Notes: generated by a model not told the origin, from the letters alone. Shown: positions 4,218-41,939, counted from the stretch's first letter. The stretch is DNA of 56,867 nucleotides from Reclinomonas americana ATCC 50394 (GCA_048213135.1 PS015534.1:1-56867); one strand, 5' to 3'. Numbers and translations are program-made.

Positions 4218-7200
4218 ATGGAGCAACAACAACAACGTGCGTCTGTGCACTTTGTTCTTTGCCACTCGCTTCTCTCTCTTATGTGATATGCAGCTCCGAC
4301 TGTTCCTCTCCTGCTGCCTCCACTGCCTCCACCGCAGGCGACACTGAGCAACAGTGCGTGACTTGCCTCACTGTGCACGCACAATCGTTGCTCACATGTG
4401 CAGCTCGCACACAACACACAGGCCAGTTCTGTGACTTGGTTGTTCCGCATCTGTTCAACCACCACCACTGCGACTTTGCCTCGGTCGACGAGTCGCGAAT
4501 GTCAGCCGAGCAGCTCGGAGTGCTTTGCGAGGTCCTTTTTGCGTGTGTGTGCATGCCTGCTGCCGCATCTCTGACACACGCATGCAAATGCGCAGCTGCG
4601 ACGCGATGCCAATGCGTATCTGATGCAGCATGTGCTGCCGGGGAAGACCGTCCGTCGTGATGCGTGGACCAAGGTCGAGGGCGACAACTTTCTGCGCATG
4701 ATTCGTCGCTTCCCGCATCTGCACGCGCAGTGGGGCCTCTTGTCGCTGCTGATCGACAGTCGCAACGGCCAGCAGTGCCAGTCCTTTATGCAGTTCTTGC
4801 TGAGCGTACAGTCGAAGCCGGGTTTGGTGCGTCTTTATTTGCTGCCGCCGGTTTCGTGCAATATCTCTAATATTATTATTTTGATTGCACAGGCGCAGTC
4901 TTTTGGTGCGCGTGCGTTGCCGGCACCCGCCACGGCAACCACTACCACCACCACCACTGCCACCACGTCAACGACAGCGACGACGGCTACTGTCATTTTT
5001 GATGACGGTCCACTGGCGAGGCTGCCGCCGCTTTCACCTCCGTCACCACCGCCGCCACCTCCTCTGGTGCTGCCACCGCTGCCCGAGCCTTCGGCCTTGC
5101 CACCGATGCGACAACTGCCTCCGCTACCACCACCGCCATCAGCCTCTCTGCGACCAGAGCCACCCCCACCACCACCACCTCCTCCCCCTCCAGCGTTGCC
5201 TTCGCCACCACCGTCACCGTCACCACCGCCTCCTCCACCAGCGTTGCCGTCGCCACCGCCACTGCCTCCGCCACCTCCTCCACCAGCTTTACCGTCACCG
5301 CCGCCGCTTCCTCCACCACCGGCACCCGCGCTACCGGTAGTTGTGGGATCTCGCGACTTGCCGTTCGTGGAGCGCGGATGCAACACGGATCGGACGTCTG
5401 TGCGGCATGTTTCCACGCAAGTCAACCTCGCCGCCGATGACATGGAAGAGGAGCGCAGTGCGATGCGCCAGCAACAGCAGCAACAGCGGCAGCAGTTGCA
5501 AGAGATGGAGAATCAGGTGTGCTCGCTGCGTCATCGTTTGTGTCTTTCGTTGGTTGACTCACCAACGGCGACAGCTCCGGTGCCGGGATCTGCGCGTTTT
5601 GCACCTGCAACGGCGCATGCTGCAACTGCAGCGCTTCCACGAAGACATTCGTCGCGCATCGTCCGACATGCAGTTCTTGATGGACAGTGCGTTTGTGTTT
5701 CCTTTGCCTTTGTGTGCTCCTCTGCGCTGCTGATCCCTCCGCATGCACGTGCAGTGTCCGTCGACTCTACCACGACTTCGAGCACGCTTCTGTCGGTTCC
5801 TGCGCACGTTGAGGCCTACCGACCGAAGCGCTCATTCACTGTCTTCAACTCGGTCACCAATGTTGCGTCGCAGTGCGCCTGATCCATCTCGTAGTCTCCC
5901 TGACTCATGCGCGCCGCACCTCCCTGCGCAGGAGCTCATCGGGTGCGCCGTGGCCGCTAGCGATGTGGCTGCCTTGGAGCCGGCAGAAAAGAAGCGCCGT
6001 CGTGTCACCGATGCATCGTCGCCGGCCATCGCCGCAGTCGACAGAGCAGTGTCGATTTCTGCAATGACGGCCACCACCACCACCACCAACTCCTCCTCCA
6101 AGAAGAAAGAAAAGCCGGCTGCAATGGCGGCGGCGGCGGCGGCGGATCCGAGTGTCGACTCGCTGTTTGACGAGGATCCACTCGTGCGCTACAGCAAGAT
6201 GGAGCAGATGATTCAGGATGCGTTCGAGAAGCAGGCGGCATCGTCGTCATCCACCGACGACGCAGCCTACCTGCAGTACCGTCAGGGACTCGAGGTGGAG
6301 CGCGAAAAGGCCGCTGCCGATGTGGTGGAGTGCCCGCTGTGCCTCCTGGACATGGAGCACGGGGTCTTTCAGTTGCCGGCGTGTGGCCACTCGTTTCACT
6401 TGGAGTGCCTGTCCAAGAGTTACGTGCACCAGTATAAGACGCAGTGATGTGGCGCTCATCTGCCGTTTGTTTGTGACGCAGTGCTGGCCAGTCGCTTTGT
6501 CACCCGCAAAATGTGCACGGCATGCTTCCGCGATCTTGGAACGGACGAGATCAAGCACATCAACACCGCCGTGCGGACTGAGCGATACAAGGCACAGCCG
6601 CCAGCACCGCAGCCACCACCGCTGGTGTCACCGCCACCACCACCACCACCGCCTCCACCTGCTCCGATTGCGAAGTCGCCAATACCGACGTGGCTGCTAG
6701 CTCCGATCGCCAACTCTCTGCTGCCTTCACCGGTATCGGAGAGCGGCAGCGGCATCACGCACATGAAGACGGACGTCGGCTGGTGCGTCTGTCAACCGAC
6801 GTACGTTTTTATACTCTCCTGACCACGCACACGCAGCAGCGCCGCCACCACCATCGGTCCGGTCGACCTGCCGCCGGCCGACACTGCCATCACCGAGGCC
6901 ACTGTCACAGGCGACGAAGTCGTTGCGGTCGTCGCTGAAGACATGCAAGTCGACAAGCCGAATCCGGAAAGCAAGACCACCAGCAAGAAGAAGAGGGCTG
7001 CGACGCCGCGCAAACGAGTCAACCAGCTGCTTTATGAGCTGGCCGGCTCACATGACGAAGCGAAGGCTCTCGAGGCGGTGGTTGCGAAGCACGGAGACGG
7101 TGCGGGCACAGCAGAGCCGGCAGACGCGGCGGAATCCGACATGCAGTACCGAGTATTCTTGCGACGCGGCAAGCTGAAGGACCCACGCAACTCTGCCACC

Positions 7201-11000: not shown

Positions 11001-12314
11001 CTCCACACGGGCACCCTTGACGTGCATGGCATGGTCCTTGCTCTCGTGCAACGACAGTGTACCGCTGGCCGCTGCGGTGCACCGATAATGTTGGCATGAA
11101 AAAACGATGAGCACAGCAAGAGGGCGGGGGTGCACGCAACGATTCAACAAGTCGCGAATCTGCTCATTGTAAATCTCCACGTACGACACGTACAGGTAGA
11201 ACATGATGTTGAGATCGGCATTGTCAATCTCCTCAAAAATGGCGTCGGCGATGCGCGGGATCAGACCGCGGTCCAGTGGATCCTCACAAAAGCCCTGCGA
11301 TGGCGGTATGAGAACAGAGAGGGAGGGGGAACGGGATTGGTGGAGCGGCGCGCAACTCTGAGCGTCTCCTCTCCCGGTCCCATCATGGTGTGCGTCTTGC
11401 CGGAACCAGTTTGCCCGTACGCAAACAGCGTAGCATTGTAGCCCTCGAACAGCGCTGCCGAAAAAACACACACATATAATGATGAGAATCTGACATGCTT
11501 CGCCTCAAACGATGGAGTTATCACAGACCATCCACGGCCGGCGACCCGACATACTCGTAGACCAACTCCTGCGGATCGCCGGGCCTGAACACGCAATCAA
11601 ACGAGAACTTGTGCGCGACATTATCCTTGGTCTGGCCAGGGGAGAAGAGAGCTACACAGTGAGTCATGCATGAAGAAGACAGACCTGGATCAGTAACACA
11701 CACACCGTCAGCCGCACAGTATGCGCATTGCCCTCAAAATCAAACTCCACGCAGTCCTTGCCGCCAGCCTTGCGCTCAATCGAGTTCGACGGGCGGAACC
11801 TGCACATCACCTGCAGAGGCACAACAATGGTCACGCAAATCCGAACCTGCAAAAATCCTCTCACTTATGCAAAGCAAAGAGAGACCTTGATGTTCTGCCC
11901 CGAAGTCGGCGACGCTCCACCCCCCGGAGTTGAGCGTCTCCGCTTGCTGGAGGAGGGACTGTCGACACTCGCCGCACCGGGCGAGTCGAGCATGACAACC
12001 GACGATCCCATGGACGACAGCGAGTCGCCTCCGGGCGACGACACTCGCCGAGAGGCACTTGTCGCACGTGTGAGACTCAGGCGCGGCACAGACGCAGAGG
12101 CTGCGGAGGACGCCACACTGCCCTCATCATCTTCATCATCATCATCAACATCTTCTTCTTGTTGTTCTTCCTCGTCTGATGCATCGTGATGATCACCGAA
12201 ATCCTCTTCTCCGCCTGCTGCTGCTACCACTTCGTCGTCTTCCACTGGTGCATCAGCAGTGGGCAGCAGTTGCGGCGAGTCCACAGGCGAGGCAGAAGGC
12301 GATGCCCCGTCCAT
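8062..12314 (-). CDS. Kinesin-1 (conventional kinesin heavy chain)-like motor protein, multi-exon
   Basis: P-loop [11 protein letters not shown], switch I NAESSRSH, switch [32 protein letters not shown], neck [18 protein letters not shown], coiled-coil stalk, and tail [12 protein letters not shown] resembling the IAK motif. Confidence 0.92.
8891..8994. repeat. Intronic 13-bp tandem repeat (GGGGAGAACGAGA) x~8 within a polypurine tract
   Basis: Directly visible tandem units inside a kinesin intron. Confidence 0.85.
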
Positions 12315-12659: not shown

Positions 12660-12756
12660 ATAGATGAGGTTGACTATCAGTAAACCAACGAAGCAAGACA
12701 GAAGAATCTCTCTCTGTGCGTGCGCGCGTGTGAGCGAGCAATCAGTGTGTGTGTGT

Positions 12757-13323
12757 ATGAGTACCGTGCAGCAGCAGCGCTTCCCGTTTGAGATGCAGAA
12801 ACCAGTGTTGCAAGTGGCCTCTCCGTCGGCGGTGGCGGCGGTGGCGGGAGTGGGCCAGCCGTCGCGTTTGCGGATCTTTGGCAATCCGATGCACCCGGCA
12901 CTGGTCGCCTTCCCCGTCGGCCTCTGGCTCTTCTCGCTGGCGTGCGACTACATTGGGCTGGTGAGTGGCGGCAAGGCCGGCACCGGCAGCACGTGGTTCA
13001 CCGTGTCGTACTACAACATGTGGGGCGGCTACATTATGGCGCACTTGGCGGCGGTGCCGGGCCTCGTCGACTGGCTGACGCTGACGCGCGGGCCCACCTT
13101 CCGCCTCGGCCTCTATCACTTTATCCTCAATGCCGTGGCGCTGCTTATGTACACGGCCAATCTGTGGCTGCGATCGGGCAGCACTCCGCGCGACAGCATG
13201 CTCCTGCCGGTGGCGCTGTCGACCACGTCGTGTGTCGGACTGGCCATCTCGGGGTGGATCGGAGGCCGGTTGGTCCACCACCACGCGATCTCGGTGGAGA
13301 ATGTCAAGATTCTCAGTGAGTGA
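12757..13323 (+). CDS. DUF2231-like membrane protein, intronless
   Basis: PMHPALVAFPVGLW...AAVPGLVDW...GLYHFILN...SGWIGGRLVHHH matches the pattern of bacterial DUF2231 proteins; about 4 hydrophobic helices. Confidence 0.8.
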   Translation: MSTVQQQRFPFEMQKPVLQVASPSAVAAVAGVGQPSRLRIFGNPMHPALVAFPVGLWLFSLACDYIGLVSGGKAGTGSTWFTVSYYNMWGGYIMAHLAAVPGLVDWLTLTRGPTFRLGLYHFILNAVALLMYTANLWLRSGSTPRDSMLLPVALSTTSCVGLAISGWIGGRLVHHHAISVENVKILSE

Positions 13324-15965: not shown

Positions 15966-16789
15966 GTTGTGTGACAAGCTTCGCACAGCCGCCTCCACTG
16001 CGACGTCTGCGGCGGGCGGCAAGAAGGCACCGGCTAGTGGCAGGAAGGCCTCGGGTGGCAAGAAGGAGGAGAAGGTCAAGGCGATCACCAACGAGAAGGA
16101 GGGTGCGTTAATGAGTCTGTGGCGTCTGTCTCGTTTGGTGAGCTGACGTGCGGGCGCAGTGGAGAAGCTGCTGCTGGACTACTTGCGCGAGTTGAATCGA
16201 CCATTCAGCGTGCAGCACATTCTCGACGCCCAAAAGGGCGCGGTGAAGAAGCCGCTGCTGACCAAGGTGCTGGAGGCGATGGCCGCCGCCAACAAGATCG
16301 GAGCCAAGGACGGATCCGGCAAGCAGCGCATCTACTTTGCCGACCAGGATCAGTTCCCGGTTCTCAACGAGGCCGAACTCGCCGAGCTCGACGCCAAGAT
16401 CGAGGACGCCAAGGCGCAGGATGAAGCCGTCACCGCCGAGCGCAATGCACTCGCCAGCGACGTGAAGCGCCTGGAGTCGGAGCCAACGGAGGCCGAGCTG
16501 GACAAGCAGTTGACGCAAATGGAGCAGGAGGTGAGGGGACGGCTTGTGCTGCAAATTGCGCGTGATGTTGGTCTTCATTGAGGATGTTGCGCCACAGAAT
16601 GTTCGCCTGTCGGAGAAGCTGGCGCTGCTGAGCAATGGTGCCGTGCTGGTGTCGGCCGAGGATCGAGAAAAGGCGGTGAAGATGTACGAAAAGTACCGAG
16701 TTGCGTGGCTGCTGTCAGCGAAATAGTGTTGTTGTTGGTGGTGGTGGTGAGTTGACACTGTCGATGGTGCTTGCAGCGCGAGTGGCGAA
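14797..16789 (+). CDS. HOP2: HOP2/TBPIP homologous-pairing protein with a long acidic and Lys/Ala-rich N-terminal extension; 3' end lost at a gap
   Basis: Winged helix LLDYLRELNRPFSVQHILD...KPLLTKVLE...GKQRIYFADQ, coiled coil with EPTEAEL, and YEKYR|REWR. Confidence 0.85.
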
Positions 16790-25303: not shown

Positions 25304-27969
25304 TCACACACCCTGCCCCTCGTCCAACCGTTGCGACCATTGACGGTTGGAGGGCGCCGCGGTCACTGGCGACTGCCTGCTTCGTTTCAGCAGCACGAAA
25401 ATCGTCACCAGCACCAAAACCGTCGTGACCAGGCTGCCGCCCATCAGCACCGCCAAGACGACACCGTTGCCGCTCTTGGGCTTGTCTCCGTGATCGTTGT
25501 GATCGCTGTGATTGTCGTCATCGTTGGCGTCGGCGGGCTTCGGGGCGAAAACGATGCGGTCGGTGGGGGGTCGCGCCACCATGCCCATTTTGCTGATGTA
25601 GTCGACCAAGCTGTCGGCCTGCGTGGTGCCAAAGTCGTTGTAGCGCGCGAGCTCTGTCAGCATGGAGAAGCCATCGCCGCCGCGCTGAAGGAAACTGGAA
25701 AACGCCACACTGTACGTTTGGTCGTCGTCGATTTTGGTGCCGTCCAGCAGTGTCGCATTCCACTGCGAAACACGAGTGAGCAGCGTACCCACCCAATCAC
25801 CACCGCTAGAGTAACCATAGACGCACTACTCGGTGACCCACAGGCTGCTGCATGTCGATCCAGTAGCGGAAACCCGATACTTGCAGGAATCCTCCGCCAC
25901 CCACCACCGATGCGCTGCGATGAATGGGAGTGGGAATCAGAACCACGATAGCTCTGCTGCCGTCGACGTCTCATCTCACCTGTGCTCCAACACTTCGTGC
26001 AACTGATCGCCAGTGAGCCACGACTCGACCACTGTGTTGCCGAACGGGAACACCTCGTAGACGGCACCTGTGGGGCGCGCAGCCAGCAGGTGAACGAGGA
26101 GACAAAAATTGCAAAAAAAAAACAGACAGGGTTCACGCAACCGTATGACACGGGGCCAGCATCGATGGAGGCGCGAATGTTGCCACCTGGCGCACGACGC
26201 TACCCCGTGAGGACGAAACTCGACGAAGAGCACATGCGAGTTACAAACCATTGATGAATGCAATCTGCGTCTTGGCTGTCGCTCGCAGAGCATCGGCGGC
26301 GAAACTGCCCAGCGTGCATTCGGCGTTGCGACACTGGCCGCTCAGAGGCACTGGAGTGGATGAAAGCGGCTTTTGCAACAGATCGTAGACGCTCATCGTA
26401 AAGGCTGCGTCGCTCCACCACCGTGAGCGACTGTCGTTGCAGCAGCAGCAGCAGCAGTATACTTGACGCAACGATTCAACAGCTCGTCAATGGCCGGGTT
26501 CGACGGCACATCGAGTTTCATCATCGTGGTGGCACCGGAACATTGCAGCACGTCACCATGCGTGTCGAACACCAACTGTGCAAACCGTGTCAGCGCGCGA
26601 CTGCATCAGCGAACGACGACTACTGCGGCACGGGGGAGAACCATCAGTGAGCCGAGATATTCGTCCCAGCACTTGGCCTGCACGACACACACGAGACGGC
26701 CCTCGGCATCCTCGACGACGGTCGGGTACTGATTTGGAGGCAAGTACGTGTGGGTCTGTGTGCACACCGCATAAATCACTCCGTGAGAGATCTGCAGAAA
26801 AAGGCGAGCATAGTTTTGGCAGCACAACCCAACATGCCCGCCAATGATGGCATCCACTCCGCGCAGCTTTGACGCCAGCTCCAAATCCTCGCCGTAGCCG
26901 AGATGGCTGAGCAGAATCACCTGCGCGCCGCTCACCATATAAGGCACGTAGGCACATCCCCTTTCACACTCGGCTCTCTCCATTGCAAACCTTGTCCACG
27001 TTCTCGTTGGAGAGAGCATCGACGGCGGCCTGCACTGGTTCGCGCGCATCGACAAATCTCGACTGCGGACTGGCGGCGGCAGTGTACGCCGTCGATGGTG
27101 TGATGGCACCCTGCAGTGGTGCATTTTTTCGTGACGAACTGCTTTGTGATGCAACACACCACATCGCAGAAACCGAACCACAATGCCCACACGATGGCCT
27201 GACGGCATCGTACGAATCGTGTACGGCTGGATGCGTGTGAAACTCTTGTGCAGCGGGTCCTCCGACATGTCGAGATTGGCCACCAGCACATCGACAGCGG
27301 GATTGAGTGCGTCCATGTACTGCGCCAGTCCCGCAGAGCCGCGATCAAACTCATGATTGCTGTGCGAGACACACGCGTGAGACAACTGCACCGCACCTCT
27401 TGTCTCTCTCTCTTCACAAACACACCCCAGCGTGATGGCGTCGTATCCCACAGCGTTGATCATGGTGGCCGCCAGCTGTTCCAACACCCAGATGAGTGAC
27501 CGAGTAGTCGCTCAAGCAAGCACAGGGCAGAACACAACTGATGGTCCATGAATGGTGAAGAAGAGCGAGCCTTGAAACTCATCGCCAGCATACACCCACA
27601 GCGCATCCACACCAGCAGCTATATCGGCCTCTCTCCGACGGTGCAACTCCGCCATTGCACGCGCAATGCCACCGCGGCATGGACTCAGCGGCATTGCGAG
27701 ATCTGTGGGATTGCGTAAATGACGACTTATGCAATGCACTGTCTCTCTCACACGCAGTCTCTCCCCCTCCGTTTGTTTCACTTGCCTGCAGGGAGACAGG
27801 TGATGCCCGAGGCCTTGAACGGCAAGTAATGTGCATGCACATCGTTGAGATGATAGATTTGCAGCTCATACGTCAGATCACCGTCGTCTCCTTCGTTCTG
27901 TGCATGTGCGATGGAGAGGCAGGCGACGAGAAGAAGCACTGCGAACAGTGCAGCCACACTGCGGCTCAT
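25304..27969 (-). CDS. Membrane-anchored ecto-5'-nucleotidase (UshA/CD73 family), multi-exon
   Basis: Signal peptide; HLNDVH, AGDEFQG, LGNHEFD, LSHLG, GGH|TH, FPFGN, GGDGF motifs; C-terminal TM VVLAVLMGGSLVTTVLVLVTIFVLL. Confidence 0.92.
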
Positions 27970-29218: not shown

Positions 29219-38443
<9,225 letters not shown>

Positions 38444-38509: not shown

Positions 38510-38656
38510 ATGTTTCGTCCACGTGTGCCCACTCGAGAGGATACGGATAAGGCGCTGAAGGAGGTGGCCAGGCGAGGCACCTTTGTCGAGGTGGAGGCGG
38601 CGGAGGTGCCAGGCGCAGTGCGTGCAACAAAAGGTGTGAAACACACACACACACAA

Positions 38657-38749
<93 letters not shown>

Positions 38750-40178
38750 GACAGAGAGAGAGACTGAGAGGTACACCAGAGACAAGAGGAATGCAGACGG
38801 ACTGGGAGACAGACACACACACACAGAGAGAGAGAAAGGAATCGATGCAAAGAACGCTGCTGACCTCTTCTCCCTCGCCTCTCCTCGCCTCCCCCTCTCT
38901 CCCTGTCTCTCAGGTGGGGCGACTGCAGACCGAGCGATTGCCGAGTCGTTGCGACGAGAGGGCGCAGCGCGACACTCGCGTGCGGGCATGCATCCCGACA
39001 CAATGGAGTCTCTGCAGCTGCGCGCCTTTGAGGACCTGTTCATGTATGCAGGCGCCTATGCCGAGTACCGCTCGGTGGTGTTTGTGCAGTCCGATGAGGA
39101 TGTCGAGCCGGGAGTGGTGCGCTCTTCACTCAACTCCTTCTGTCTCTTTCTCACTGGGCGCTCACATTGTGCACAGCTGCGACTGCACCCGCTGGTGATG
39201 CGCTCGTTGCACGTGCACTCGGGCGATCGCGTAAAGATCGAGCGGTGTCGCGACATTGACGGTGGCGAGGGCGTGGCCATGCAGCTGGTGCGCTCGGAGA
39301 CGTCGCTGGAGGTGCCGTCGCCGTTGGAGCCGCAGGCGCGACGGCGGTTTGGGAAGCGCCTGTTTAACGAGTTTCTGCTGCCGTACTTTGCGCGACTGTG
39401 TCTGCCGGTGCACACGGGCGATCACCTCATCATCCCGTCGGCGGTCAATGCCGACGAGTCGGTTGAGCTGCGGGTGATTGGCACGGTGCCGTCGCCGTTT
39501 TGCTACCTGGCGCCGTACACGCAGCTGACGGTGCAGGCGCCGCCGGTGCCCAAGGCGCTGCGCATGAAGCTCGGTCCGCGGTACTACGCCAAGTCGCCAG
39601 AGGAGGCCGCCGTGCTGCTGCGCAAGGCCAAGTATGTGGACGAGCCGAAGGACGCCAGAAGGGAGAGGGCGAAGCAGCAGCAGCAGCAGAAGAAGAAGAG
39701 GACGAGTGAGAGCGGCACGGGCGGGGAGTCGTCAGCAGCGGCGGGGGGTGAGGACGACGGCGAGGAGGAGATGGGAGAAGAAGAGAATGAGGATGATGAG
39801 GAGGAGGAGGAGGATGAGGAACTGTACAGCGGCGAGAACCCACCGACCAAGGAGGACCTGGCGCGCGTGATGCGCTTGATCGACAAGCCCACGCCCGAAG
39901 GCAGCCAGAAGCCGACTCCCGGCTCTCCGCCGCCACCCAACACCCGCGACTACCACGAGCACATGACGACATCGTTCCGGCCGTGCGATGTCATCTTCTC
40001 GGAGCCGCTGTACGAGGACGCCGACAAAGACTCGTTTGTGCCGCACGACATGCGTCGGAAGCGACTGACGTCGTCGCGCAACGCCCTCATCTTTGGCACG
40101 GTGATCATGGCCGCCTTTGTGCTCTACTTTGGCTACCAGCTCTACCAGATGGGCTTTGATGCGCTGAGTTTCTCGTAG
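38510..40178 (+). CDS. Stand-alone CDC48/p97 N-domain protein with acidic linker and C-terminal transmembrane anchor; no AAA domain
   Basis: VVFVQSDEDVEPGV|LRLHPLVMRSLHVHSGDRVKIERCRD...LFNEFLLPYFARLCLPVHTGDHL...VELRVIGTVPSPFCYLAPYT aligns by eye with the p97 N-domain. Ends ALIFGTVIMAAFVLYFGYQLYQMGFDALSFS*. Confidence 0.8.
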
Positions 40179-40246
40179 TCGGCCCCACATGTCAGTGAAG
40201 ACGGAGAAGAAACGCACAGTCCTTGTGTCCTCTCTTTGTTGAAGAA

Positions 40247-41939
40247 ATGCATGAGGAGCGGAGTGACGAAGACAGCTCCCTGCCTCCCACCGACAGTGGC
40301 ATCGAGCTGGCCACACTGCTCGACGATGAGGAGTCGTCCAGTTCCACTGCAGGTGGCCTATTATTCGTCTTCGTACCTCATTCTCCTCTGTCATCATCGC
40401 TCATCTCCCACAGCAGTCGTCACCTCGGAGCACGTGCCCACTGCGCAGCCCGTGGAGCACGACCCTCCTGGCCGATGGTGGCAACTCTCGCTGCAGTGCC
40501 TCACCGTGGCACTGGCCTACGCCACCTGGTTCTCCGCCAGTGCCGTCCTCCCACAACTGGTGCACCTGTTCGCCCTTAGTGCACCTCTCACTGCGCTCCT
40601 GTCGGTCTCGGTGCAAGTGGGATTCACTGTGGGTGCCTTCCTCTCGGCGCTCGTCACGCTGTCGGACCTGGTGAAGCCTCGGCGACTGGCCTTGTGGGGA
40701 TCACTGTTGTCGGCACTTTGCAATGCAGCTGTGCTGCTGGACGGTGTGCCGTTTGCGGCCGTGGTTGCCGCACGTTTTGGTGCCGGCTTCTTCCTCGCTG
40801 CGGTGTACCCGCCGGGCGTGAAGCACATCGCCACCTGGTGGCGACATGGGCGCGGTCTGGCCGTCGGCTGCTATGTCGGCGCCCTCGCCGTGGGCAGCGC
40901 ACTGCCGTCGCTCTCGTCGGCCGTGCTGCCTGCCGACTACGCATCCGTCACACTGGTCAGCTCCGTGCTGAGTGCGGTGGGTGGCTTGCTGGCCATCCTG
41001 TGGCGTGACGGCCCGTATCCCTTCCCCACCGCCAAGTTCCGACTTCGCCAAGTGCCCGACACGCTGGCCTCGCTCCCGCTGCTGCTCGTCGCCGCCAGTT
41101 ACACCGGCCACACGTGGGAGCTGTATGGCGCCTGGTCATGGTTCAAGTCCTTCATGAACAACGCCCTTTCCGTGCGAGGCCAAGACCCCGTGACGGCCGC
41201 TCGATCGGCGTCGCTCATCAATTTTGTGTTTGTCGGCAGGTGCGACAAGTGGAGACTCATGTGCGCGCCAGCTCGATTTTCCTCACTCTGTCATAACAGT
41301 GGTGTTATTGGTTGCGTCGCTGGCGGCCGGTTGAGTGACAAGTACGGGCGCACGCTGGTGACCCTGGTCACGGTGTGCATCAGCGGAGCTTGCTCGGTGC
41401 TGGTCGGTTTGCTGGACATGGCGGCCTGCCCCGTGTGGGTTCTCGTTTGTGTGGCTATTGTGTGGGGTTGCGTTGCTTCTTGTTGTTGTGCTCGACCGCT
41501 TGCTGTTGTGGAGGAGCTTATCTCCCATCCTTCAGGCATCACCATTATCGCTGACTCGGCGCTGTACACGTTTCGTGTTTCGTTTGCAAGTGCTGTTTTT
41601 ACCGATCCCAGCTGCTTCTCACTCCCGTCTTGCCCGCACAGCTCCATGGCCACTGAACTGGCCGACCAGGTGTGCAGATCGGGAAAAGTGAATGCGTGAG
41701 TGTTCGTGTTTGCTCACTCCCCCGTGCAGTCCTACGTCGGCACCGCCGTGTCGTTGCAAATGGTGCTTGGCTTCCTGCTGGCTACACCGGCGGTGCTGTC
41801 AGTGCCGCTGGCGCAGCCGAGCCTCGGATGGGACGCCGTGTTCACGTTGCTGACGCCGGGCGCGGTGATCGGCATTATCGGCATGCTCTGGTTGCGCCGA
41901 CTGCCGGACGCCAAGCGCATCGCACACGGCAAGATGTGA
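40247..41939 (+). CDS. Major facilitator superfamily transporter of a bacterial-type subfamily
   Basis: WFSASAV, VQVGF, VYPPGVKHIATW..GRG, YTGHTWELY, GRLSDKYGR, IADSA, YVGTAVSLQ; about 12 TM segments; 5 introns. Confidence 0.9.

Follow-up and report, generated by a model that had tools for sequence, protein, structure and literature searches.

A predicted tail-anchored protein with a CDC48-type N-domain and no ATPase in Reclinomonas americana

The window analyzed here, a 56,867-nucleotide stretch of Reclinomonas americana ATCC 50394 (GCA_048213135.1 PS015534.1:1-56867), carries on its plus strand an uninterrupted open reading frame (ORF) of 396 codons when unspliced (product P0001), extending from an ATG at 38988 to a TAG stop at 40176-40178. 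Sequence comparisons indicate that the predicted product combines a CDC48-type N-domain, a charged linker and a C-terminal anchor with no ATPase, and this architecture appears to be real. We consider it probable that the locus is a live, lineage-restricted gene encoding a tail-anchored membrane protein, in which a diverged CDC48-type N-domain would serve as a membrane-fixed binding module. The window is a draft sequence with gaps (13 N-runs; GC content ~0.6 outside gaps). The N-runs nearest to the locus lie at 37798-37817 and 45375-46170 with none between 37818 and 45374, in agreement with the original prediction that no gap interrupts the gene.

Domain composition of the predicted protein

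A phmmer search of all PDB chains with P0001 gave 76 distinct matches (E ≤ 10); each of the 60 listed was a p97/VCP/TER94/CDC48 chain, and the best was 4rv0_A (E = 1e-9, query residues 50-186). Likewise, tblastn with the CDC48 fragment P0007 in a local database aligned 127 columns at 30% identity (E = 3e-15), and a hidden Markov model (HMM) built from seven complete CDC48 N-domains scored 69.8 bits once a probable 60-nt intron had been excised. A HMMER search of 1.84 billion representatives yielded 42 matches at E ≤ 1e-3, none of which reached E ≤ 1e-10; they are CDC48 fragments except for P0005 (eight were examined in full, and the first 110 residues of all). The proposed similarity to p97/CDC48 N-domains was thus upheld, and its significance across both subdomains argues for membership in the CDC48/p97-type N-domain superfamily. 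Since identity to complete CDC48 N-domains is only 25-30%, P0001 is evidently not the organism's real CDC48.

The C-terminal subdomain (Nc), a beta-barrel, appears well kept, and the N-terminal subdomain (Nn), a double-psi barrel, partly kept. The segment 39177..39554 (+) encodes the second half of Nn, the inter-subdomain linker and the Nc barrel, as indicated by phmmer, tblastn, Pfam and AlphaFold2 (AF2). In this part, the Gly-Asp of the second psi-loop of Nn is kept, with Ser-Gly-Asp replacing the usual Leu-Gly-Asp, and the inter-subdomain linker is 13 residues longer than in CDC48. The first coding part, 38988..39116 (+), starts at the first ATG after a pyrimidine tract and encodes what looks like a poorly conserved vestige of the initial half of Nn. 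After intron removal, its product aligns to positions 39-80 of the CDC48 N-domain HMM, and MAFFT pairs its stretch MHPDTMESLQL with a matching stretch of the CDC48 fragments P0012 and P0040.

In CDC48/p97, the N-domain is followed by D1 and D2 AAA+ modules, neither of which appears to be encoded here. Neither the ORF nor any of 43 further ORFs in the window with a G+C fraction at third codon positions (GC3) of at least 0.70 matched an AAA family in Pfam. No Walker A motif was found in six frames between 37900 and 42100, and no GPPGxGK in six frames of the whole window. Elsewhere, the window has just two generic Walker A motifs, at 11416 (-) and 33827 (+); both are over 5 kb from the gene, and neither is AAA-type. 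These results bear out the claim that the gene has no Walker A motif and no ATPase. A chain devoid of D1 and D2 would hydrolyze no ATP, form no D1-mediated hexamer and unfold no substrate.

The Nc barrel is followed by a disordered linker (39555..39821, +) that comprises a Pro-rich barrel exit (QAPPVP), a KKKR patch, a Gly/Ser/Ala stretch and then an acidic run with 22 Asp or Glu in 42 residues. The run ends directly in Leu279-Tyr280 (39822..39827, +), identified by regular-expression match in P0001. The pre-anchor region (39828..40082, +), which matched no family in Pfam or in an Atlas search with the C-terminal 114 residues, ends in a basic cluster, RRKR..R, on the predicted cytosolic side of the helix. 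The only hydrophobic segment of P0001 spans residues 363-387, with a best 19-residue Kyte-Doolittle window of 1.85 (threshold, 1.4), and ends 10 residues before the stop. Its core, residues 366-386 (40083..40145, +), is the predicted transmembrane helix, for which a single-sequence AF2 model also gave a helix at 362-387. The 10-residue C-terminal tail and the TAG stop occupy 40146..40178 (+), and the tail has a net charge of -1. With one C-terminal helix and no other hydrophobic segment or N-terminal signal sequence, the predicted product has the layout of a tail-anchored protein, and the described succession of charged and acidic linker, single hydrophobic helix and stop is confirmed.

Within the pre-anchor region, a loose FFAT-like core, Tyr-Glu-Asp-Ala, is located at residue 342 (residues 339-348, ~40002-40031), after acidic or Ser residues; 20 residues separate it from the anchor. 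Should this core be genuine, it would point to contact with VAP-type proteins on a different membrane.

Gene model, codon usage and relatives

Excision of 39117-39176 (+) raised the score against the N-domain HMM from 59.6 to 69.8 bits and merged two partial alignments into one covering profile positions 39-189 of 214. The GC3 of this 60-nt segment is 0.55, versus 0.74 in its 5' flank and 0.86 in its 3' flank. It is in frame, stop-free and pyrimidine-rich, opens with a GTGCGC donor and contains GCTCAC ~17 nt before its terminal CAG. A 72-nt intron in the neighbouring MtnA gene belongs to the same size class and shares the 5' GTGCG and the CTCAC motif. That intron is proven by comparison with the Leishmania major and human MtnA chains, which are contiguous where the window translation skips 24 residues. 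Introns of 58 nt in MtnA and of 61 nt in the downstream gene for a major facilitator superfamily (MFS) transporter are of the same size class, and the four donors seen in the window are GTGCGC, GTGCGT, GTCAGC and GTGGCC. In MAFFT and phmmer alignments, the intron-encoded peptide can alternatively be placed on a CDC48 strand if the preceding 21 residues are looped out. Because this alternative alignment exists, homology alone is not decisive, and codon bias and splice signals decide; they indicate that 39117-39176 is probably a spliceosomal intron. The first, double-psi-barrel-like motif quoted in the original prediction does not exist as contiguous DNA and appears only after these 60 nt are spliced out.

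Both this segment and the 72-nt MtnA intron are stop-free multiples of three, so that ORF finders read through them. A second in-frame stretch, a 48-nt GTGCGC...CAG within the inter-subdomain insertion, was considered as an intron and rejected: all its codons have G or C in third position, it contains no CTNAY, and its length falls below the 58-72 nt range of the introns seen.

A start at 38510, with an exon 1 at 38510-38633 and a 280-nt first intron at 38634-38913, had been proposed and is not supported. Of 169 in-frame, stop-free combinations of an upstream ATG, GT and AG, the best scored 74.9 bits, versus 71.9 bits with no upstream exon. Upstream pieces (38510-38633 with the intron to 38913) are in phase with the main ORF and add at most 3 bits, which implies that the first two strands of Nn are either missing or encoded in a form that is not recognized. 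The proposed exon 1 has a GC3 of 0.61 and no Pfam match, and the whole interval 38510..38913 (+) contains CA/GA microsatellites and the pyrimidine tract ending in AG. The P0001 frame remains stop-free upstream of its ATG as far back as 38640, where it reads through a GA/CA microsatellite. Long (CA)n and (GA)n microsatellites at 38636-38760 and 37600-38000 lie directly 5' of the N-domain gene; they keep its frame open to 38640 and swell the ORF lists on both strands.

Codon usage argues for a live gene. GC3 is 0.86 in the N-domain, 0.82 in the linker, 0.86 in the pre-anchor region and 0.83 in the anchor, and drops to 0.50 in the 72 nt 3' of the stop. A GC3 of 0.82-0.86, together with a G+C fraction at second codon positions (GC2) of 0.37-0.47, is sustained over ~1000 nt, including in the parts free of homology, and the drops in GC3 coincide exactly with the intron and the stop. 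It is the persistence of high GC3 through the linker and anchor, followed by this fall, that suggests a functional coding sequence.

Searches for relatives revealed a single orthologue-like sequence among the 1.84 billion representatives, P0005, a 188-aa fragment from one 3292-nt contig. P0005 shares with P0001 a family-specific strand and exit motif, SPFCY.APY.Q.TVQAPP.P, at a place where CDC48 has a different, conserved sequence. Both proteins, ~33% identical, then continue from QAPP.P through an acidic run to [LM][YW], the P0005 equivalent of Leu279-Tyr280 being Met-Trp. Word-index searches with P0001 yielded no hit at E ≤ 0.001 among 4051 candidates of near lengths or among 404 of shorter lengths, and the same search with P0005 retrieved only P0005 itself among 261 candidates. 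A metagenome scan with the P0001/P0005 alignment produced 592 pattern matches, none of which was confirmed. An Atlas search with the whole protein gave weak leads in the N-domain superfamily (scores 0.77-0.80), and one with the C-terminal 114 residues gave no match.

This conservation, along with the codon usage, bears on whether the locus could be a decaying or never-functional partial CDC48 duplicate, whose frame has stayed open by chance in a genome rich in GC and poor in stops, or is a draft artefact. Long chance ORFs are indeed common (5 kb overlaps 48 ORFs of 60 aa or more), Nn looks degenerate, and the protein has lost docking residues and has hardly any family. We nonetheless regard such decay as unlikely, given that the codon bias falls exactly at the intron and stop, that an intron with good signals has been retained at a locus free of N-runs, and that P0005 keeps the exit motif, the acidic run and the aromatic pair at its level of divergence, which implies long-term retention.

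Among sequencing runs, none from RNA was listed as matching the locus. In DNA run X1, a single 313-nt contig matched 39603-39658 and 39828-39887 with zero differences and is uninformative on expression, splicing and ends; runs X4, X18 and X6 gave no contig on the locus. The DNA rows of one study (n = 3) contain 0.05-0.14 of the words of the locus. The 28-nt loose end of the X1 contig resembles what we take to be a library linker; it would presumably be in keeping with a paired-end draft of older date, where indels may occur at homopolymers.

Docking surfaces and competing explanations

The original prediction proposed that a membrane-tethered N-domain could dock or sequester p97 cofactors. To compare docking residues, human p97 numbering was mapped through P0007 (human = P0007 + 1), an offset validated by the presence in P0007 of the residue named in the literature at 17 of 17 mapped positions. 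Tyr110 and Tyr143, described as key for binding of UBX/UBXL in a review (PMC5389986), are Gly and Cys here, and the loop Phe-Arg-Gly-Asp at 52-55 is replaced by Arg-Ala-Phe-Glu, all four positions being changed. Among the 10 p97 residues that contact the Ufd1 SHP box, as listed in PMC5042407, two are identical (Phe131 and Phe139), three are conservatively replaced (Val166, Val176 and Ile182 by Ile, Leu and Leu) and five non-conservatively (Arg113, His115, Leu117, His183 and Leu140 by Gly, Ala, Gln, Thr and Ala). A further position close to the groove, Thr168, is unchanged, and the 13-residue insertion sits beside the SHP strand. None of the disease-linked or D1-facing arginines (Arg95, Arg155 and Arg159) is an Arg here, a loss that fits a domain no longer packing on D1.

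The canonical cleft and half of the groove thus appear to be gone, which argues against a simple cofactor decoy and against a cofactor-competent p97 N-domain. The view that the protein docks the standard cofactors (UBX/UBXL, SHP, VIM and VBM) through the canonical cleft and groove draws on the fact that the domain, judged by the 60 PDB matches listed, is closest to CDC48 itself rather than to a different N-domain family, on the SHP pocket being partly kept and on the retention of Thr168. It would, however, require a cleft built on an intact Nn, which is doubtful here, and the insertion beside the SHP strand speaks against it, as do the lost tyrosines, loop and groove residues. We therefore rate it as quite improbable, and the proposed docking or sequestering through canonical sites did not survive the comparison of residues.

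The p97 tail is acidic just before Leu-Tyr, and the acidic run of P0001 leads directly into Leu279-Tyr280 in the same manner (Met-Trp in P0005). According to PMC5389986, PUB/PUL domains contact p97 chiefly through Leu804 and the penultimate Tyr805, and PMC5070193 describes the C-terminal hydrophobic-Tyr-X motif as highly conserved in eukaryotic Cdc48. Unlike the pair in this tail, Leu279-Tyr280 is internal, ~115 residues from the C-terminus rather than penultimate, so that it does not constitute an HbYX-type tail and only the local pattern would be shared. The resemblance is between short, low-complexity sequences, and no regular-expression match to SHP or VIM motifs was found in the linker. 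We regard the acidic Leu-Tyr motif as a lead, a possible look-alike of the CDC48 tail. The protein might be a motor-less CDC48 mimic, with an N-domain and a tail-like motif but the engine removed, offering a membrane-fixed landing pad or competitor for PUB/PUL-type and Nc-binding factors. This reading seems unlikely to us; if true, the protein would set the pool of CDC48 cofactors available at the membrane and would be a natural dominant regulator, of an undescribed kind, for the CDC48 network.

Structure prediction was consistent with part of the N-domain. The single-sequence AF2 model had a mean predicted local distance difference test (pLDDT) score of 40 and was unusable. A second model was built from a 20-row alignment whose first row was the unspliced 38916-39575 and whose rows were CDC48 sequences; its pLDDT was 75-94 over model residues ~121-210, corresponding to Nc, so that only this subdomain models confidently. 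Foldseek returned 164 matches at E ≤ 0.001 among 500 counted, and the top matches listed (E = 1.4e-9; template modelling score, 0.36-0.46) were all p97/CDC48 N-domains.

Several observations weigh against a live gene for a tail-anchored N-domain protein. The original prediction named the lack of a significant CDC48_N/CDC48_2 match as a refuting result, and in Pfam scans that took unspliced pieces neither profile reached its cut-off: CDC48_N (PF02359) gave no match, and CDC48_2 (PF02933) scored 12.5 bits with the entire ORF and 15.9 bits (E = 0.01) with the piece starting at 39177, against a cut-off of 22.4, whereas pairwise and custom-profile statistics were significant. The claim that both subdomains are present holds for the Nc motifs but only in part for Nn, as HMM coverage begins at position 39 of 214, leaving ~38 N-terminal positions, with the first two strands, missing or unresolved, and as the Gly-Asp of the first psi-loop is Glu-Asp here. 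In the alignment-dependent model, the pLDDT is below 50 over residues 37-86 (the weakly conserved initial half of Nn together with the peptide read from the intron), a region in which the model contains 20 intron-encoded residues misplaced by the MAFFT alignment. As the model was built on CDC48 sequences, its Nc part and the Foldseek matches amount to a consistency check and not to independent evidence. The gene model was read from DNA alone, in a gapped draft whose 13 N-runs make indel errors possible, and the only orthologue-like relative retrieved is a fragment.

A further point of this kind concerns the 3' end. The next gene, for the MFS transporter, starts with an ATG at 40247 on the same strand, 68 nt after the stop, as the original prediction stated. 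A GT at 40169 and an AG at 40243-40244, after a pyrimidine tract, define an unscored 76-nt intron that would join the two frames through one Lys codon. Splicing out the stop in this way would carry the frame into the transporter and turn the helix into an extra first helix of a fusion. We consider this highly improbable, since the donor, GTTTCT, is unlike the four donors seen in the window, an in-frame outcome has a one-in-three chance, the MFS exon begins with its own ATG, GC3 is ~0.5 from 40158 to 40247, and an extra first helix would invert what we take to be the usual MFS topology.

On balance, we retain the reading of a live, tail-anchored N-domain protein. Its product would comprise ~376 residues after removal of the 60-nt intron: the N-domain, ~175 disordered residues, the helix and the 10-residue tail. 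It most likely would have originated as a partial copy of the host CDC48 gene, and would be inserted post-translationally with its N-domain facing the cytosol. Tail charge guides the targeting of tail-anchored proteins, and as the tail carries no positive charge, our guess for the target membrane is the endoplasmic reticulum. The ligand would probably not be a canonical UBX domain, since the cleft residues are replaced. Our preferred mechanism is a lineage-specific adaptor that would hold a partner at the membrane through the surfaces it has kept, namely the hydrophobic pocket of Nc, the strand and exit motif specific to the family, and the acidic Leu-Tyr motif.

Compared with known systems, the CDC48/p97/VCP N-domain is the only significant relative, with which the protein shares the core residues of Nc and the Gly-Asp of the second psi-loop. 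It differs from it by the absence of D1 and D2, by the membrane anchor, by an identity of 25-30% (true orthologues are much closer to each other), by the replacement of the UBX tyrosines, the loop at 52-55 and five of the ten SHP contacts, and by first strands that are missing or unresolved. The Ufd1 UT3 domain and short giant-virus proteins resembling CDC48_N/CDC48_2 likewise have an N-domain-type fold with no ATPase on the chain. Ufd1 is soluble and binds ubiquitin and Npl4. The nearest-neighbour clusters in Atlas (PEX-1N, CDC48_N, CDC48_2 and UFD1_N2, some of 157-199 aa and some viral) are leads only; they do not indicate kinship beyond the superfamily, and no tail anchor was reported among the entries compared. 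Membrane proteins of the p97 network, such as UBXD8/Ubx2, VIMP, Derlin with its SHP box and gp78 with its VIM, also place components at the membrane, as described in PMC5389986. These proteins carry motifs that bind the N-domain, whereas the protein described here carries a copy of the N-domain, which reverses the logic. A full-text literature search, with subscription journals and supplements outside its reach, found no membrane-bound N-domain-only protein, tail-anchored or otherwise, in the text it covered, so that the claim of an undescribed architecture stands within that scope.

Neighbouring genes and implications

The MFS transporter gene occupies 40247..41699 (+; Pfam MFS_1, E = 1.1e-17), with an exon 1 at 40247-40352 and an intron of 61 nt (40353-40413), beyond which coding continues in the frame of ORF 40251-41699. 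Its ATG lies in another frame than the N-domain gene, the long MFS frame being entered after the intron. In the intergenic interval (40178-40247), the AG that closes a pyrimidine tract is 2 nt 5' of the ATG. Such spacing implies untranslated regions that overlap or are tiny, and a very compact genome, a dicistronic transcript or trans-splicing are candidate explanations. At the other end of the gene (41699-41939, +), the MFS frame stops at 41699 and resumes in another frame as ORF 41700-41936 (GC3 0.86), which reflects either an intron or a draft indel.

The MtnA gene (methylthioribose-1-phosphate isomerase, IF-2B family; 50799-52125, -) contains at least three short introns, among them the 72-nt intron at 51943-52014, which is in frame and stop-free, and the 58-nt intron near 51760-51817; its last exon is 50799-51011. 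No pyrimidine tract was found upstream of its start, and its product scores equally against the human and L. major structures. A kinetoplastid origin, first suggested by GC content, the GA/CA microsatellites and the pyrimidine tract with its final AG 5' of the N-domain ORF, was rejected on these two grounds and because MtnA contains short introns; the DNA is that of a GC-rich eukaryote with introns, not of a trypanosomatid. A lone 5S rRNA gene (52714-52833, +; 103 bits) lies between protein-coding genes with no visible array, and an RNA-family and tRNA scan of the window detected only this 5S rRNA. Other genes, at 5734-6444, 11416, 12664-13320, 16147-16578, 25307-25825 and 52795-53400, encode a RING finger, a P-loop, DUF2231, a Hop2/TBPIP winged helix, a 5'-nucleotidase C-terminal domain and Kelch repeats. 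None of these six is tied to the CDC48 pathway, with the possible exception of the RING finger, and the P-loop at 11416 (-), GQTGSGKT, is presumably kinesin-like.

For the CDC48 family, the narrow and safe conclusion is that at least one protist or fungus-like lineage appears to have re-used the N-domain fold in a tail-anchored protein. The case comprises one draft locus and one fragment, in which the canonical docking residues appear to be lost. p97/CDC48 is guided wholly by the factors that dock on its N-domain and C-terminal tail. If the proposed reading is true, docking elements freed of the motor and fixed to a membrane would represent a new type of regulator, and a ready tool for separating docking from unfolding.

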